64,000 bases of DNA from Candidatus Hydrogenedentota bacterium. GTDB taxonomy: Bacteria; Hydrogenedentota; Hydrogenedentia; Hydrogenedentales; SLHB01. Positions 37,985 through 44,707 of the stretch are shown here, piece by piece; position 1 is the stretch's first letter, and the number at the start of each line of letters is the position of its first letter. A model generated the notes under the pieces. That model searched no databases. It saw nothing but the letters and a program-made list of their open reading frames with translations, and was not told the DNA's origin. The stretch lies in assembly GCA_963668025.2 (NCBI GenBank), contig CAXXTH010000017.1:544001-608000 (forward strand), given 5' to 3'. A program made the translations under genes and the position numbers.

Positions 37985-39910
37985 TTAATCCAGCGCGAGC
38001 ACAAACGTGCTTACACTGTGCCAGGCATTGTGCAGGAAAAGGGCTTCCCGCTGCGCGCCGGCTTTCTTGAAGCCCAGCGCCTCTAGAAATGCCTGGAGCG
38101 CGGGCTCCCGATCTGCGGCTTCGACCAGAATCCGGCGAAGGGATTGCTGTTTGCCCGCCTCGGTGAGGAGAAACCGGAATCCCTTGCGGATGCGTTCCTG
38201 GGCATACAGCGCTTCATCATGCAGGAAGATGCTGGCGCGCATGGCGCCCGTAGCCATATCTGGCGTCATGCGGACCAGGCCAATGGGCGCGCCGCCGCGT
38301 AGCGTGGCGACCATTTCCTGCACGAAAACTTGCGGGTGAAGGGCGTCCATCTCCCGCTCGTATTGCGTGGTCATCAATACGCAGCCCGGATGTAACACAA
38401 AATACGAAGCCTCGCTCCAGTTTTCCCACTTCACCAGCATCTCGGCGTCCGCTTCCGCGATAGGCCGCATCAGCACATTCAATTGGAGCGCGGCGCGCGC
38501 CATCGTGGCGAGGGAAAACAACGACGGCTTGGACGAGGCGTTCATGCCTTGATAAATCGGCGTGAAGTTGACCCCCTGGCCGGAAAGAATATTGAAGGCC
38601 GATACCGCCGAGGCCATCCACATGCGCTGCGCCTCGCACCAAGGCCCATGTGGTTTGCGGAAAGAGCCCGAAAGAGCTTGATGTACGGCGGCCGTCCCGC
38701 CGCCGCATAAATTGCGCGCCCAGCAGTTCCGGCACGCGGAAGTCGTGAGCGAGCCCACATCGTCATATCGCTTTAAGGCTTCTTCATCGACATGCCCGTC
38801 CACGATAGACCCCGCCCGGAATTCCGGCATCCCGAAAAAGCGCCAAGAGGGGTAAATGCCGCCGTCGGCGTCCACCGCGAGTTCATTCGTGCCGGTTGCA
38901 TCCGTACGGGCTTGCGGCTTGCCTTCGTGAATACGGTAAAACAATGCGGCAATGGGATCGAGCCGGAAATGGCGTCCCTTGGCGAGTTGTTCCGCATAAT
39001 ACACCGCCGACTGGCTTAATCCCGGCAGTATGGCGGCAGGTTCGAGCGCGGGATTGGCGATGAACGCGCCATCCAGATCGATCTCGATGACTTTGAAACC
39101 CGCCTTGTCCAGTTCCGGCACCACTCCGCCGTATTCCGGATGATTCGGCCGTACAACGATGCGCCCTGACACGCCTTCCGCGCCAGGCTGCAATACTTTC
39201 ACCAGGCGCGCCAGCGACTCCGTACTGCCTTTCGCCAAGGCATTCAAATGCGGCGCAATGCCGCTTGGATCTTGGAACGCCAGTTTGGCGGAAACGGTAT
39301 GGCCTTTCAGCGCTTCTGGCGGATTCGACAAGGCAATGTCCGCCACATGCACGACCGCACTCAGTTTTTTCCCCGCGAGCGAGGCGAGGCGTAGCGCATG
39401 GGCGCATAAACCGGCAAGCAATTCGGGCTGGCGCACGGCTCCCGGAACGATGAATTCGATAGCGAGTTCTTTCTGCTGTTCGGAGCGCGTGAGCAACAGT
39501 TCGACGGCTTCACGGCCTTGCTCGCGGGCGGAGTTCGACACCACCTGCACATCCTTGCCGAACCAGCCGCGCTTGCGCGGCGCTTCCACGGCATCCTCGC
39601 CCGGCAGCGAAACCGCTAAATGCTTGATTCCACGCTCCACGGAAAAGGTCTTCACGAAATCTTCTGGCGCAGGCTGCACTAGAATGGATTTGGTCGTGCG
39701 GAGCCACTCGAGTTCGCCCACGACTTCCGACAGTTCCTTCGGGTTATGTTGCTCCCCGAGCAGCCGGATGATGCGCGTCACGGACGCATCGGGGTAATAC
39801 TCGAGCACATCCCAGGAGATGCCGTCGCACTCGAAGCAGAAACAGGTTTCCGGGTCAATGGCAAACCGCTTGCCGCCCAGCTCGAACCGATGAATGCGTT
39901 CGCCCGCCAT
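37985..39910 (-). CDS. Fusion of putative RRE, degenerate radical SAM, partial SPASM and GNAT domains (putative peptide maturase/scaffold)
   Basis: N-terminus resembles the SCIFF maturase RRE; no CxxxCxxC; SPASM remnant LAVDADGGIYPS..CRNCWARNLCGGGT..WC; RimJ-like GNAT tail (MRPIAEADAEMLVKW..LGFKKAGAQRE). Confidence 0.75.
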   Translation of the reverse strand: MAGERIHRFELGGKRFAIDPETCFCFECDGISWDVLEYYPDASVTRIIRLLGEQHNPKELSEVVGELEWLRTTKSILVQPAPEDFVKTFSVERGIKHLAVSLPGEDAVEAPRKRGWFGKDVQVVSNSAREQGREAVELLLTRSEQQKELAIEFIVPGAVRQPELLAGLCAHALRLASLAGKKLSAVVHVADIALSNPPEALKGHTVSAKLAFQDPSGIAPHLNALAKGSTESLARLVKVLQPGAEGVSGRIVVRPNHPEYGGVVPELDKAGFKVIEIDLDGAFIANPALEPAAILPGLSQSAVYYAEQLAKGRHFRLDPIAALFYRIHEGKPQARTDATGTNELAVDADGGIYPSWRFFGMPEFRAGSIVDGHVDEEALKRYDDVGSLTTSACRNCWARNLCGGGTAAVHQALSGSFRKPHGPWCEAQRMWMASAVSAFNILSGQGVNFTPIYQGMNASSKPSLFSLATMARAALQLNVLMRPIAEADAEMLVKWENWSEASYFVLHPGCVLMTTQYEREMDALHPQVFVQEMVATLRGGAPIGLVRMTPDMATGAMRASIFLHDEALYAQERIRKGFRFLLTEAGKQQSLRRILVEAADREPALQAFLEALGFKKAGAQREALFLHNAWHSVSTFVLALD

Positions 39911-40905
39911 CAATACGCTCCCAGCGTGCCCTTATCGCGGCTCCAATTCTCACAATACCGGAAACAGGCAATCCCAATAGTGGTCCATAACATGCAACTG
40001 ATGAGAAAGAAGAAAAAGGACGGCTGATGGAAAACAGACGAGAAATAGGTCTTGTATTTATAGACCGGCTTCATCTCGGGCTTGCCTTCCGCATCCATGA
40101 CCGGCTTGCCCCGCTTGTCCAGCACAGTCTCCTGTCGGACAAGCATTTTTTGGCCATTCTCATCCAGCAGAAATTCCGGCGAGCCTTCGGCATCCAGCAC
40201 GGGCAGTTGCTGTCCGTCAATGAGGGTATAGCGCAGGCACCGGGATGCATCCGTGACGGGAAGGACGTGCGCCACGGCCCGTGCTGGTGCGGGCCACGCT
40301 TGCGGGCCTGTTTCGGAGAAGGTGGAAAAGGTGGCCAGCCCTATCAAGATAAAGCGCAGAATCATGGCAATCGGGCCGACATCCTTGAAGATCAAGACCA
40401 GGCCGCCCACCATGAAGCCAAAGCCAATCAGATTCAGATAGGTGAGGCCGAGCAGCGCCACCGTAGCAGCGGGCGCGAAATGGAGCGAGCCAGGCGCGAC
40501 AAAATGCGCCACCAAGCCGAGCATGATCGCTGAATTGGCGATGCTATTGACCGAGGAAACAAACGAACGCGCCAGGAAATTAACCACCAGCCCGTACGGG
40601 CTTAGGCAAACCTGTTCGAGTTCGCCCGTGCGCGCCATGCCTTGGATGCCTTGGGTGAACATGCCCACGATGCCAAAGGCGAATACGCCAATGAAGAATC
40701 CCAGTACGAGGCTGACATACCCGCTGAGGTTATCCAGGGCATTTGTACCGCCCAGCGTGATGACCATCTTCACCGCTCCGCCGATCATGGCGAAGCCCAT
40801 CGACAAGCCAATCAACGCCGCGAACCAATACCGCCGCATAATGATGAAGCTGCGGACCAATTCGGCCTTGAGTATGAGGAAAAATCCGCCTATCGCGTAT
40901 AACAC
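39910..40905 (-). CDS. ABC-2 type exporter permease
   Basis: About 6 TM helices, GELEQVCLSP, LPVT, GTLGAY end; adjacent to the ATPase gene. Confidence 0.85.
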   Translation of the reverse strand: MLYAIGGFFLILKAELVRSFIIMRRYWFAALIGLSMGFAMIGGAVKMVITLGGTNALDNLSGYVSLVLGFFIGVFAFGIVGMFTQGIQGMARTGELEQVCLSPYGLVVNFLARSFVSSVNSIANSAIMLGLVAHFVAPGSLHFAPAATVALLGLTYLNLIGFGFMVGGLVLIFKDVGPIAMILRFILIGLATFSTFSETGPQAWPAPARAVAHVLPVTDASRCLRYTLIDGQQLPVLDAEGSPEFLLDENGQKMLVRQETVLDKRGKPVMDAEGKPEMKPVYKYKTYFSSVFHQPSFFFFLISCMLWTTIGIACFRYCENWSRDKGTLGAY

Positions 40906-40980
40906 CTCTAATATGCCCTTTCCACTATTCTGTTTGCGCCGTGGCGGCCTGCTGCAACGCGGATACGCCGAAACCCGCGG

Positions 40981-44456: not shown

Positions 44457-44594
44457 TTAGGCTTCAGCAGCCTTTTTAGTTTGAAGCGCCGTCAACACGG
44501 TGACCGCGAACTGCATCGTCGAGAGGATAAAATCCACATCCACGGTGTCATCGCTGAGATCGGGCCATTTGGTCATTGCTTTAATGTGATTCAC
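44457..44594 (-). CDS. Putative precursor peptide A1 (45 aa): MNHIKAMTKWPDLSDDTVDVDFILSTMQFAVTVLTALQTKKAAEA
   Basis: Translated by hand; AAAGGAG RBS 9 nt before GTG; first gene after the promoter. Confidence 0.78.
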   Translation of the reverse strand: MNHIKAMTKWPDLSDDTVDVDFILSTMQFAVTVLTALQTKKAAEA

Positions 44595-44678
44595 GGATTA
44601 CATCTCCTTTTTCCCTGTGTGCGGACAGAGCGCCTAACTCGTTTACAGCCAAGCGTATACCCCAGAGAACCACGCCGA

Positions 44679-44707
44679 AGTATAACACCCTGCCCCTTCT
44701 AAATCAA
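44679..44707 (-). promoter_or_regulatory. Sigma70 promoter of the peptide operon
   Basis: TTGATT-N17-TATACT with extended -10 (TGTTATACT). Confidence 0.7.

Follow-up and report, generated by a model that had tools for sequence, protein, structure and literature searches.

A candidate peptide-modification operon conserved across Hydrogenedentota, with a fusion protein related to SCIFF radical-SAM maturases

What is made by a gene cluster that sets small peptide genes in front of three GNAT domains, a membrane protease, an ABC transporter and a relative of radical-SAM maturases? We analyzed such a cluster on the minus strand, at positions 37985 to 44707 of the window (the whole 64,000-nucleotide stretch of Hydrogenedentota DNA under study), and assigned its protein-gene families using Pfam and NCBIfam. 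It comprises, in order, two small peptide genes, a hairpin, gnatA, gnatB, and genes for a CPBP protease, an ABC ATPase, an ABC-2 permease and a multidomain fusion protein (Table 1). A first-pass annotation had proposed this order, together with the identities of the CPBP, ABC ATPase and gnatB products, and both were borne out by the open reading frame (ORF) list and Pfam. The ORF coordinates also confirmed the start/stop overlaps described there, at 42824-42827, 42057-42060 and 39910-39913 (the last given only as 39910). The ABC permease gene is in place as claimed, but its ABC-2 match is weak. We favor, with a probability of roughly 60%, a leader-guided, RiPP-like pathway of peptide modification, processing and export that was derived from a SCIFF-type system.

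Table 1. Coordinates of features in the cluster (positions in the window)
Feature	Coordinates	Strand	Details
Promoter-like site	44679..44707	-	TTGATT, 17 nt, TATACT, TG ahead of second hexamer; upstream of peptide A1
Peptide A1, putative type II precursor, 45 aa	44457..44594	-	GTG start, AGGAG Shine-Dalgarno upstream
Peptide A2, putative type I precursor, 38 aa	44216..44332	-	GTG start, GGAGG Shine-Dalgarno upstream
Stem-loop then U-rich tract, possible attenuator	~44147..44193	-	Between A2 and gnatA; MFE and centroid structures
gnatA, divergent GNAT-fold protein, 186 aa	43496..44056	-	Pfam Acetyltransf_3, E 0.013, below cut-off
gnatB, Acetyltransf_3 (RimJ/RimL-type) GNAT, 210 aa	42824..43456	-	PF13302, E 2.5e-16
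CPBP/Rce1-like intramembrane glutamic protease	42057..42827	-	PF02517, E 2.6e-9, 37.7 bits (cut-off 22.4)
ABC transporter ATPase (DrrA-like)	40981..42060	-	ABC_tran, E 1.4e-30; start overlaps CPBP stop
ABC-2-type permease	39910..40905	-	ABC2_membrane_3, E 0.0037, below cut-off
Fusion protein, 642 aa (RRE/degenerate radical-SAM/SPASM/GNAT)	37985-39913	-	
Fusion aa 1-90, RRE-like, putative leader-binding domain	39644..39913	-	Aligned to CteB 5wgg residues 6-173
Fusion aa 95-335, degenerate radical-SAM barrel	38909..39631	-	CxxxCxxC absent, GGE-equivalent residues replaced
Fusion aa 338-445, SPASM region	38579..38902	-	TIGR04085, 40 bits (cut-off 27)
Fusion aa 478-642 plus stop codon, C-terminal GNAT	37985..38482	-	Foldseek: 3igr, E 1.2e-8; 1s7l, RimL

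The small peptides share a leader of ~15 residues with the consensus MKH(I/L/V)(K/R)x(I/V)(S/T)...A(D/E/Q). Peptide A1 has an MNHIK leader, a hydrophobic helix and a ...TKKAAEA tail. Peptide A2, for which there is an alternative TTG start at 44338, has an MKHIRKIS leader followed by RADA, an aromatic amphipathic helix (maximum helical hydrophobic moment, 0.60) and a KKNEYV tail. Orthologues of A1 were found by tblastn in loci L006 and L056, and M1, H3 and K40 were invariant when A1 was aligned with 20 related peptides. In the type I alignment (24 sequences), M1, H3 and A12 were invariant, K33 and K34 were at least 90% conserved, and core identity was 45 to 89%. M1, H3 and a Lys a few residues from the C terminus are invariant. 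The cores are variable amphipathic or hydrophobic helices of two to three types, and most aligned cores lack Cys. The two to three divergent peptide paralogues have only the leader and the Lys in common. We searched both strands of 60 loci and the window for small ORFs with a regular expression for the leader; 59 of 60 such ORFs were on the operon strand, and those of the related loci lay no more than ~1.8 kb upstream of gnatA. Synonymous codon differences outnumbered nonsynonymous differences in close peptide pairs (20:5 for A2 and its L006 counterpart, 19:7 and 17:2), and on these codon counts the peptides are under purifying selection at the amino acid level over their full length. No NCBIfam or Pfam family matched the A1/A2-type peptides. 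SCIFF leaders presumably also begin MKHIK. The SCIFF precursor model TIGR03973 gave no match to the tested peptides, and a likeness to SCIFF leaders could not be demonstrated. The proposal that the two small peptides are precursors agrees with the conserved leader, the fixed positions and the synonymous excess, and we conclude that the small ORFs resemble coevolving precursor peptides.

Two regulatory features had also been proposed. The promoter-like site upstream of A1 is present, but the region contains 5 such sites against a shuffle mean of 4.4, and because this count is no higher than in shuffles, the site is a candidate only. The hairpin after the peptide genes was found as described, and the whole 164-nt A2-gnatA spacer folds only modestly better than shuffled sequences (z = -1.76). 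A hairpin with a U-tract at this position would also suit an arrangement in which the small ORFs act in cis as regulatory leader peptides, the operon acylates and exports a small molecule or envelope component, and the former maturase is a pseudoenzyme scaffold or sensor. That arrangement would account for loci without adjacent small ORFs, for the resemblance of gnatB to the sugar N-acetyltransferase model for PseH (TIGR03585; E 3.9e-16, below cut-off), and for the gltBD genes that adjoin the cluster in 14 of the 32 loci with enough flank. We nevertheless consider it very unlikely, given purifying selection throughout the peptides, the divergence of paralogues that retain only leader and Lys, and the homology of the fusion RRE to the peptide-binding domain of CteB; moreover, conserved helical cores are not normal for regulatory leader peptides. 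Modification substrates remain our preferred identity for the small ORFs.

We found the fusion gene in 123 of 135 genomes of Hydrogenedentota (83 of the 86 high-quality ones), where it is single-copy and syntenic, and even the most divergent genome, whose fusion protein is 28% identical, keeps both the operon and the leader peptides. Sequence upstream of the fusion gene extends 6.6 kb or more in 39 related loci, and in 34 of them the six genes are collinear, an arrangement far beyond chance. The first-pass annotation had named homologues lacking the small ORFs or the GNAT and CPBP genes as evidence against a peptide system. For the most part the loci do not provide such evidence: besides the 34 complete loci, 32 of the 39 carry at least one adjacent leader ORF (one to three per locus). 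gnatA was found in 34 of the 39, four of the seven loci without a leader ORF also lack gnatA, and locus L052 lacks four of the genes. Vertical inheritance across the phylum is the best explanation for this distribution. The cluster is not a sporadic biosynthetic gene cluster, and since it is near-universal and syntenic across the phylum, a conserved physiological role fits better than a sporadic natural-product cluster.

This distribution bears on whether the locus might encode a bacteriocin, with membrane-active peptides, CPBP (Abi-type) and ABC-2 proteins for immunity and export, and GNATs that protect the producer or N-acetylate the peptide. Bacteriocin genes are repeatedly accompanied by CPBP and ABC-2 modules, as in the Bacillus subtilis SKF operon, with its CPBP protein SkfC and ABC pair SkfEF, and the amphipathic or hydrophobic helical cores, variable and encoded by one to three paralogues per locus, would suit such a role. 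However, antimicrobial loci are usually patchy, unlike a single-copy, syntenic gene in most genomes of a phylum; conservation of the type I core is high; and the cluster flanks lack a conserved, separate small immunity gene. Conservation this close to universal is not typical of RiPP natural products. The same argument has been made for the SCIFFs, whose near-universal presence in Clostridia was taken to speak against an antimicrobial role and to be atypical for RiPP natural products (PMC8326336). We consider a bacteriocin unlikely. Given the phylum-wide conservation, a signaling or envelope function is more likely than an antibiotic one for the product of the peptide-modifying pathway that we favor.

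All four parts of the proposed RRE/radical-SAM-like/SPASM/GNAT fusion were found: an RRE-like N terminus, a barrel without CxxxCxxC, a SPASM region and a C-terminal GNAT fold. The sole phmmer match in the PDB was the SCIFF maturase CteB (5wgg; E 3e-18), which aligned over the N-terminal domain (6-173) and again over the SPASM region (340-429). An AlphaFold model of the fusion protein (pLDDT 86.4) had 5wgg as its best fold match (E 9e-18; target-normalized TM 0.72), and its C terminus matched RimJ/RimL/SpeG-type GNATs. The best NCBIfam match was TIGR03974, at 71.5 bits (cut-off 425). A family search of 1.84 billion representatives yielded ~35 near-full-length members of 596 to 678 aa, plus shorter fragments, among 48 matches at E <= 1e-30. 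We scanned five of the sub-500-aa proteins that ranked just under the fusion family; TIGR03974 was the best model for all five, one of which (P0182) scored 572.9 bits, above the cut-off. With CteB the top PDB match in sequence and in fold alike, and with TIGR03974 the best model for the five scanned proteins that rank next, the earlier suggestion of descent from a SCIFF/ranthipeptide maturase is upheld.

In the model, the RRE-like domain consists of three strands (8-29) and then three helices (31-73), and H8 and the triad C24-x-C26-x-x-C29 are invariant in the aligned family. In the barrel, fusion residues "slpgedaveap" align opposite CteB "HISHDCNLRCKYCF", and "ivpgav" aligns opposite "FFGGEP". 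CxxxCxxC is missing from all 50 aligned family members, whose barrels have no conserved Cys. The SPASM residues C394, C397, C403 and C426, which we take to be one complete SPASM cluster set, are invariant in the aligned family, and the remaining three SPASM Cys positions are replaced (D338, S356 and T407). Across the family, these three Cys were lost together with the gain of the N-terminal triad. The fusion had been called a dead radical-SAM scaffold. The loss of CxxxCxxC supports this, but with the four SPASM Cys and the new triad invariant, "dead scaffold" is too strong a label.

A predicted complex of the fusion protein with A2 scored 0.54, compared to 0.01 for the best control, and passed a mark that 58 of 80 solved complexes attained, as did 2 of 110 mismatched pairs, although at scores of 0.60 or less only 7 of the 80 solved complexes pass, alongside both passing mismatches. 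The runs shared at least 41% of contacts, and partner pLDDT was at least 47. Because the similar CteB-CteA complex is solved, the pass may reflect memory. We take the prediction as weak support for the favored pathway.

The three GNAT domains appear to be related. gnatA matched the fusion C-terminal domain (hhalign probability 98.4, E 4e-15) and gnatB (91.8, E 7.5e-7), and on profile comparison the fusion domain is a gnatA paralogue. gnatB scored 61.1 bits against a Pfam cut-off of 25.4 and showed the top identities among the accessory genes (47 to 68% to the window protein, partial matches counted). Pfam scores of the fusion GNAT were, like that of gnatA, below cut-off; its invariant residues include E487, D489, W496, W499, Y518, R520, E521, H526, Y570, R576 and R622. 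The canonical GNAT loop for the CoA pyrophosphate is Q/R-x-x-G-x-G/A. We did not see it in any of the three domains on reading the sequences and their homologues; the gnatB loop is R-N-A-T-V-G and varies among homologues. Because the canonical loop is absent from all three, their use of acyl-CoA is uncertain. Its absence would be expected if the GNAT folds were binding or structural modules and the main chemistry a nonradical Fe-S or metal reaction at the SPASM cluster and C24/C26/C29. The invariance of seven Cys despite loss of the SAM cluster, and the exchange of three SPASM Cys for the N-terminal triad, point the same way. Yet the fusion GNAT and gnatB are rich in invariant residues typical of active domains, gnatB is clearly above its threshold, and literature searches gave no precedent for a SPASM domain catalyzing alone. 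We give this reading little credence, and continue to infer acyl transfer as the chemistry of the system.

The CPBP catalytic motifs EExxxR, FxxxH and HxxxD are conserved across 26 sequences, and we count the protease as probably functional on that basis. Its ORF is open from 42956 (42057-42956), but homologue alignments begin ~45 residues in, and the start is likely the GTG at 42827, which overlaps the stop of gnatB. The ABC ATPase matched TIGR01188 (E 7e-70, below that model's cut-off). The permease is conserved across 52 sequences; its insertion at aa 234-289 is a gap in most of them and has no consensus counterpart.

Gene content and order, domain homologies, Cys loss and retention, co-conservation, and selection acting on the peptide-coding sequences together suggest the following pathway, from leader binding through modification and cleavage to export. 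The one to three small genes would encode precursors with an N-terminal leader, a variable helical core and the near-C-terminal Lys. The fusion protein would be a descendant of a SCIFF/ranthipeptide-type radical-SAM maturase that gave up the SAM cluster, and with it radical chemistry, kept the leader-docking RRE and one SPASM Fe-S site, and gained a GNAT. It would present the core to its own GNAT and to free gnatA and gnatB for acyl transfer, most likely to the invariant Lys or a newly exposed N terminus. The CPBP protease may trim the leader and/or the short tail beyond the Lys, and the ABC-2 transporter would export the product. A look for RNA data sets containing the locus listed none. Literature searches found no description of such an operon, which looks like an undescribed route to modified peptides spanning a bacterial phylum.

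Parts of this operon resemble several known systems. Like RimJ/RimL acetyltransferases, gnatB passes PF13302, and the fusion GNAT superposes on RimJ-like 3igr and on 1s7l. In contrast, this operon has three paralogous domains, which on our reading lack the canonical CoA loop; one belongs to a fusion with a peptide-binding scaffold, and the small peptides encoded alongside, not ribosomal proteins, are the presumed substrates. The skf operon similarly combines a small precursor, a radical-SAM-type maturase, a CPBP-family protease, an ABC ATPase and an ABC-2 permease. However, SkfB is an active sactisynthase, and the skf locus has no GNATs, is strain-restricted and is antimicrobial. SkfB also carries an RRE (PMC8326336). 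In the NCBIfam/Pfam search, the CPBP protein here did not match any SKF-specific model.

GNAT-catalyzed acylation of Lys/Orn in RiPP precursors is established for selidamides (PMC8784127). KspN and PhaN act leader dependently on Lys or Orn side chains (PMC8784127, PMC13647313), Lys residues cluster at core ends, as in our peptides, and at least one cluster (pha) includes a peptidase in its machinery for membrane export (PMC8784127). Selidamide leaders are long NHLP or Nif11 types with Gly-Gly cleavage sites, unlike the short leader here, and a term search of the two papers turned up neither SPASM, radical SAM nor CAAX in either, nor CPBP in PMC13647313. In our cluster, one GNAT domain forms part of a protein built on a former radical-SAM RRE scaffold, and acylation is the presumed activity. 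Another close parallel is with the SCIFF/ranthipeptide system (CteA and CteB, 5wgg; TIGR03973 and TIGR03974). The fusion shares homology with CteB from its RRE through the barrel to the SPASM region, short precursors are encoded beside the maturase in both, and each system is near-universal in one large taxon, Clostridia (PMC8326336) or Hydrogenedentota. The fusion protein differs in lacking CxxxCxxC and GGE, in retaining only 4 of 7 SPASM Cys in the main clade, and in its extra Cys triad and GNAT; its candidate substrates differ in their mostly Cys-less cores and in not matching TIGR03973 where tested; and the operon adds two further GNATs, a CPBP protease and an ABC-2 exporter.

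The minus-strand unit that the first-pass annotation had described at 37985-44707 was present, all of its parts were found, and the start/stop overlaps proposed there agreed with the ORF coordinates. The promoter-like site placed at 44707-44679 was also present but was statistically unremarkable. The spacer that holds the hairpin folded modestly better than shuffled sequences (z = -1.76 for the whole spacer). Family support from Pfam and NCBIfam was uneven. It was clear for gnatB, the CPBP protease, and the ATPase; gnatA, the permease, and the GNAT part of the fusion protein were weakly supported.

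Positions of the operon genes, flanking features, and unlinked leader-type ORFs (window coordinates, except where a contig, C, of the same genome, G000, is named)
Feature	Position	Strand	Remarks
Peptide A1	44457-44594	-	GTG start, 45 aa, Shine-Dalgarno sequence
Peptide A2	44216-44332	-	GTG start, 38 aa, Shine-Dalgarno sequence; alternative TTG at 44338
Stem-loop with U-rich tail	~44147-44193	-	after A2
gnatA	43496-44056	-	
gnatB	42824-43456	-	Acetyltransf_3
CPBP protease	42057-42827/42956	-	Rce1-like
ABC ATPase	40981-42060	-	
ABC-2-like permease	39910-40905	-	
Insertion in permease	40039-40206	-	permease aa 234-289
Fusion protein	37985-39913	-	642 aa
Zinc-ribbon membrane protein	36807-37772	-	
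gltD, gltB	44801-51455	-	
ParE-family toxin gene	46329-46586	-	
62-aa ORF	46576-46764	-	
Unlinked small ORF	G000 C3:3446-3619	-	
Unlinked small ORF	G000 C11:72205-72351	-	
Unlinked small ORF	G000 C14:65028-65222	+	
Unlinked small ORF	G000 C17:685941-686054	-	
Unlinked small ORF	G000 C17:823209-823310	+	
Unlinked small ORF	G000 C17:873463-873624	-	
Unlinked small ORF	G000 C22, start 179108	-	
Unlinked small ORF	G000 C23:302974-303120	+	by regex
Unlinked small ORF	G000 C10:1371446-1371586	-	by regex

By sequence, the only solved relative of the fusion protein was the SCIFF maturase CteB (PDB 5wgg; E 3e-18), and the match spanned the N-terminal peptide-binding domain of CteB (residues 6-173) and its SPASM domain. 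An AlphaFold2 model built with 35 sequences (mean pLDDT, 86.4) had an N-terminal unit of three strands and then three helices (residues 8-73). This unit gives way to alternating strands and helices, then to a region resembling SPASM, and finally to an alpha/beta domain at the C terminus. Foldseek ranked 5wgg first for this model (E 9e-18; TM 0.72 normalised to the target; 483 columns). The CteB alignment, the model, and the fold match all place an RRE (PqqD-like) leader-binding domain at the N terminus; the Pfam PqqD model itself gave no match to the protein at E <= 0.1. The fusion protein passed the SPASM model TIGR04085 (40 bits versus 27). Against the SCIFF maturase model TIGR03974 it scored 71.5 bits (E 6e-20; cut-off, 425 bits), through the SPASM end of that model only.

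The radical-SAM scaffold had been called dead in the first-pass annotation. CteB HISHDCNLRCKYCF faces SLPGEDAVEAP in the window protein, CteB FFGGEP faces IVPGAV, and the radical-SAM CxxxCxxC [4Fe-4S] motif was found in none of 50 aligned family members, whose only conserved cysteines are C24, C26, C29, C394, C397, C403, and C426. Since the counterparts of CxxxCxxC and GGE are replaced and few cysteines are conserved, we concluded that the fusion protein has lost both the radical-SAM cluster and the GGE that binds SAM. Of the seven SPASM cysteines, the window protein keeps the last four just named and has D338, S356, and T407 at the other three positions. The CX2CX5C motif plus a downstream Cys would, by analogy with anSME, supply the ligands of the second auxiliary cluster. 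As these residues are kept, the word "dead" fits the radical chemistry but not necessarily the Fe-S content.

A search of the fusion protein against 1.84 billion representatives returned 48 matches at E <= 1e-30, of which about 35 were near-full-length (596 to 678 aa) and the remainder were shorter fragments. Proteins of less than 500 aa formed the next rank beneath this family. For all five that were scanned (P0168, P0177, P0180, P0182, and P0184), TIGR03974 was the best model, and P0182 exceeded its cut-off. Live maturases (P0168, P0180, P0182, and P0184) have CxxxCxxC and all seven SPASM cysteines and have no N-terminal triad. Deep-branching fusion members (locus L062 of genome G001, P0154, P0158, and P0162) have neither CxxxCxxC nor the triad and retain all seven SPASM cysteines. 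The main clade, which includes the window, also lacks CxxxCxxC, keeps four SPASM cysteines (C394, C397, C403, and C426), and has gained the triad C24/C26/C29, with D338, S356, and a variable residue at the other three SPASM positions. Family-wide, three SPASM cysteines were lost where an N-terminal C-x-C-x-x-C was gained in an RRE strand; the lineage of P0153 and P0156 showed only two of the three in this comparison. True SCIFF maturases (TIGR03974 above cut-off) were found in 0 of 135 genomes of the phylum, and 16 of the 135 have related radical-SAM/SPASM genes that fall below the cut-off. If this interpretation holds, radical chemistry can be dropped from a radical-SAM/SPASM RiPP maturase while the protein persists as a leader-binding scaffold that recruits GNATs, a different enzyme class, and the family would preserve intermediate stages of this change, with both auxiliary-cluster Cys sets in the deep branches and one set plus the new triad in the main clade.

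Named homologues of the fusion protein were nearly all from Candidatus Hydrogenedentes or Hydrogenedentota; one was labelled Bathyarchaeia. In a GTDB-based set, the fusion gene was found in 123 of 135 Hydrogenedentota genomes and in 83 of the 86 high-quality ones, mostly with one match per genome, and absences were concentrated in one family (9 of 14 genomes). We compared 60 related loci from species-representative genomes, mostly labelled Hydrogenedentota, with a few under other labels, for example Nitrospiraceae, Nitrospirales, Bathyarchaeia, or uncultured bacterium. Among the 39 loci that extend 6.6 kb or more upstream, 34 have the order gnatA-gnatB-CPBP-ATPase-permease-fusion; by tblastn, four of the other five lacked gnatA alone and one (L052) lacked four genes. 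The most divergent genome (28% fusion identity) has the same gene order and leader-bearing peptides. In L026, L030, L031, and L033, gnatA and the adjacent leader peptides are absent together and gnatB through fusion are kept; L044 and L057 have all six genes and no recognisable adjacent peptide; L052 has the permease and fusion genes only. The peptide genes of these loci may lie elsewhere in their genomes. The cluster is a rare handle on an uncultured phylum.

Besides the six operon genes, only gltD and gltB recurred in the flanks (antisense shadow ORFs ignored). In the window they lie directly upstream of the peptide genes, and 14 of the 32 related loci with sufficient flank, very divergent ones among them, also have gltD upstream. 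Between gltB and gltD, the window has a gene for a ParE-family toxin (Pfam PF05016, E 2.3e-7), overlapped by an upstream 62-aa ORF without a family match; the two are probably a type II toxin-antitoxin pair inserted in the glutamate synthase operon. The zinc-ribbon membrane protein gene directly downstream of the fusion gene was found by tblastn in 0 of the 60 related loci and is therefore outside the conserved unit.

We ran the leader expression M-[KRNQST]-H-[ILVM]-[KR] on all ORFs of 20 to 90 aa, on both strands, in the 60 loci and the window. It matched 60 ORFs, 59 of which are on the operon strand, those of the loci at most about 1.8 kb upstream of gnatA; the single exception is inside a fusion gene. 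At least one adjacent leader ORF was found in 32 of 39 loci (31 by the strict expression and L027 via the variants MKHIT/MKHLT). Under the strict expression, 8 loci had no such ORF, 9 had one, 21 had two, and a single locus had three. Type I peptides, such as A2, follow the pattern MKHIRxIS..RADAF.DF.N..WRAW.DF.Y.KKNE... (24 sequences, 45 to 89% identical to A2). Type II peptides, such as A1, have MKHxRxxSRxP..A.D, a hydrophobic helix, K(E/K/N), and a short polar tail, and type III peptides, from a few loci, have a core with two cysteines. M1 and H3 are invariant in the type I and type II alignments, and a Lys lies near the C terminus (K40, invariant in type II; K33 and K34, conserved to 90% or more in type I). 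Between closely related A2 orthologues, synonymous and non-synonymous codon differences stood at 20:5, 19:7, and 17:2. As the differences are mostly synonymous, we concluded that these ORFs are protein coding and under purifying selection. A search for sequencing runs that contain the locus gave 15 entries, none of them RNA.

SCIFF precursors may also begin MKHIK, a resemblance that the profile and sequence searches did not support. The peptides matched no family in Pfam or NCBIfam, the SCIFF model included, and a phmmer search of PDB chains with A2 found nothing. The SCIFF precursor model TIGR03973 (six Cys in 45 residues) matched none of 10 peptides at E <= 10, and its search of the window's own genome did not recover the operon peptides; A1 and A2 contain no Cys. 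In silico, the operon combines what a RiPP locus calls for, namely a gene-encoded precursor with a conserved leader and a variable core beside an RRE-bearing enzyme.

A bacteriocin locus with self-immunity would also pair small peptides with an exporter, and we consider this alternative quite unlikely. The near-universal syntenic conservation of the cluster, together with the strong conservation of the type I core, makes an ordinary strain-specific antibiotic less likely, and no conserved regulator, kinase, or extra immunity gene was found in the flanks of the related loci. Because conservation speaks against such an antibiotic, as has been argued for SCIFFs, we favour a signalling or envelope function; near-universality among the high-quality genomes likewise points to core physiology of this kind.

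With respect to the enzymes, gnatB passed the Pfam model Acetyltransf_3 (61.1 bits versus 25.4) and had the highest identities among the accessory genes (47 to 68% to the window protein, partial matches included). The fusion C terminus fell below the Pfam cut-off by sequence; by structure, Foldseek assigned it the GNAT fold (E about 1e-8), the matches to its last 165 residues being GNATs of the RimJ/RimL/SpeG type. Also below the Pfam cut-off, gnatA aligned by hhalign with the fusion GNAT domain at E 4e-15 and with gnatB at E 7.5e-7. By these alignments, gnatA and gnatB are paralogues, with the fusion GNAT domain closest to gnatA. The canonical loop by which GNATs bind the acyl-CoA pyrophosphate is Q/R-x-x-G-x-G/A. 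Read from the sequences, none of the three domains has it: the residues after strand beta-4 are RNATVG in gnatB (variable among 40 sequences), YAQERIRKG in the fusion protein, and YRSPMAEE in gnatA. Since the loop binds via backbone amides, a non-canonical loop may still allow CoA binding.

CPBP (Rce1-like) proteases carry the motifs EExxxR, FxxxH, and HxxxN/D. The operon protease passed PF02517 (37.7 bits versus 22.4) and keeps EExxxR, FxxxH, and HxxxD as AEEMIWR, F..H, and HALRD (26 aligned sequences). The ATPase matched PF00005 (E 1.4e-30). The permease, at 16.9 bits against the PF12698 cut-off of 31.6, is a candidate ABC-2 membrane protein, and most of the 60 loci keep it beside the ATPase (52 sequences aligned). 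In the window it carries 56 extra hydrophilic residues (PVLDAEGSPEFLLDENGQKMLV...) at a site where most of the 52 aligned sequences have a gap.

The locus peptides were used to build a leader HMM, which was run on the window's own genome, with a reversed-sequence control. Eight unlinked small ORFs scored 14.6 to 17.5 bits versus a control maximum of 12.1 bits, the control being smaller (136,796 ORF starts versus 198,568 in the genome). The unlinked ORFs have an MKH/MRH/MAH-type leader, Shine-Dalgarno-like sequences, and a Lys near the C terminus. Ten scanned neighbouring ORFs were mostly enzymes or regulators without a link to the operon (a pyruvate-kinase-like protein, a hybrid histidine kinase, an NRPS, and a group II intron RT among them), the exception being genes for an ABC ATPase and an ABC-2-type permease, paired immediately downstream of C17:873624. 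Searches of 53 further genomes from the family gave no match to the C11 candidate at E <= 0.01. These ORFs may be extra substrates, or they may be matches by chance. An identical 36-aa ORF (MRHLRNSVVCERADG...), which surfaced only through its match to the short leader expression, is present in at least 10 copies in the genome (e.g., C8:67912, C10:281695, C14:87815, and C23:50104), which points to a repeated element.

The most economical reading of the operon is a RiPP-like pathway. The RRE of the former maturase would bind the MKH leader, one tethered and two free GNAT domains would move an acyl or related group onto the peptide core, the CPBP protease would trim the peptide, and the ABC-2 pump would export it. 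The invariant Lys would be the obvious GNAT nucleophile, and the short tail after it may recall CAAX processing by Rce1-type proteases. A predicted complex of the fusion protein with A2 scored 0.54, versus 0.01 for the best control. Of 80 solved complexes, 58 reached the mark used, as did 2 of 110 mismatches; only 7 of the 80 reached it at 0.60 or below, where both passing mismatches also lay. Contact agreement was at least 41%, and the partner had a pLDDT of 47 or more; the structure of a similar complex, CteB-CteA, has been solved, and memory of it may contribute. The predicted complex lends weak support to the RiPP-like mechanism. If the reading is right, this would be a new RiPP-like class that can be tested cheaply with peptides of 38 to 45 aa and four soluble or membrane enzymes.

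A bolder version, to which we give roughly one chance in five, is a phylum-defining peptide lipidation pathway in Hydrogenedentota, comprising acylation, CPBP cleavage, and ABC-2 delivery, with a Lys-based bacterial "CAAX box." The former SCIFF maturase, as a leader-binding Fe-S scaffold with a GNAT, would direct acylation of the invariant Lys in the C-terminal region of several precursors, including the unlinked ones scattered through the genome. The CPBP (Rce1-family) protease would then remove the short tail behind the acyl-Lys, and the ABC-2 pump would carry the resulting lipopeptide into the envelope or out to the medium, where it would serve as a signal or structural component. If true, this would be a new RiPP class and the first radical-SAM RiPP maturase turned non-radical scaffold.

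According to one review, SCIFFs are equally widespread in Clostridia, where their role is debated; conservation has been used to argue against an antibiotic role, and a role in quorum sensing has been proposed (PMC8326336). The fusion protein shares the RRE with the SCIFF maturase but has no CxxxCxxC, and its main clade is without three SPASM cysteines. Unlike SCIFF precursors, A1 and A2 have no Cys-rich core. In selidamides, acylation of Lys/Orn by GNATs is an established modification of ribosomal peptides (PMC8784127; PMC13647313). By term search, those papers mention no SPASM, radical-SAM, or CAAX parts, and PMC13647313 no CPBP. A literature search for the architecture found no earlier description, with supplements and many subscription papers outside its reach. 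Selidamide precursors carry long leaders of the NHLP or Nif11 type, with Gly-Gly as the cleavage site (PMC8784127), whereas the operon peptides have a leader of ~15 residues, no GG, and no NCBIfam or Pfam match. We class the operon as a putative RiPP-type pathway in which both the scaffold-enzyme architecture and the precursor family are new.
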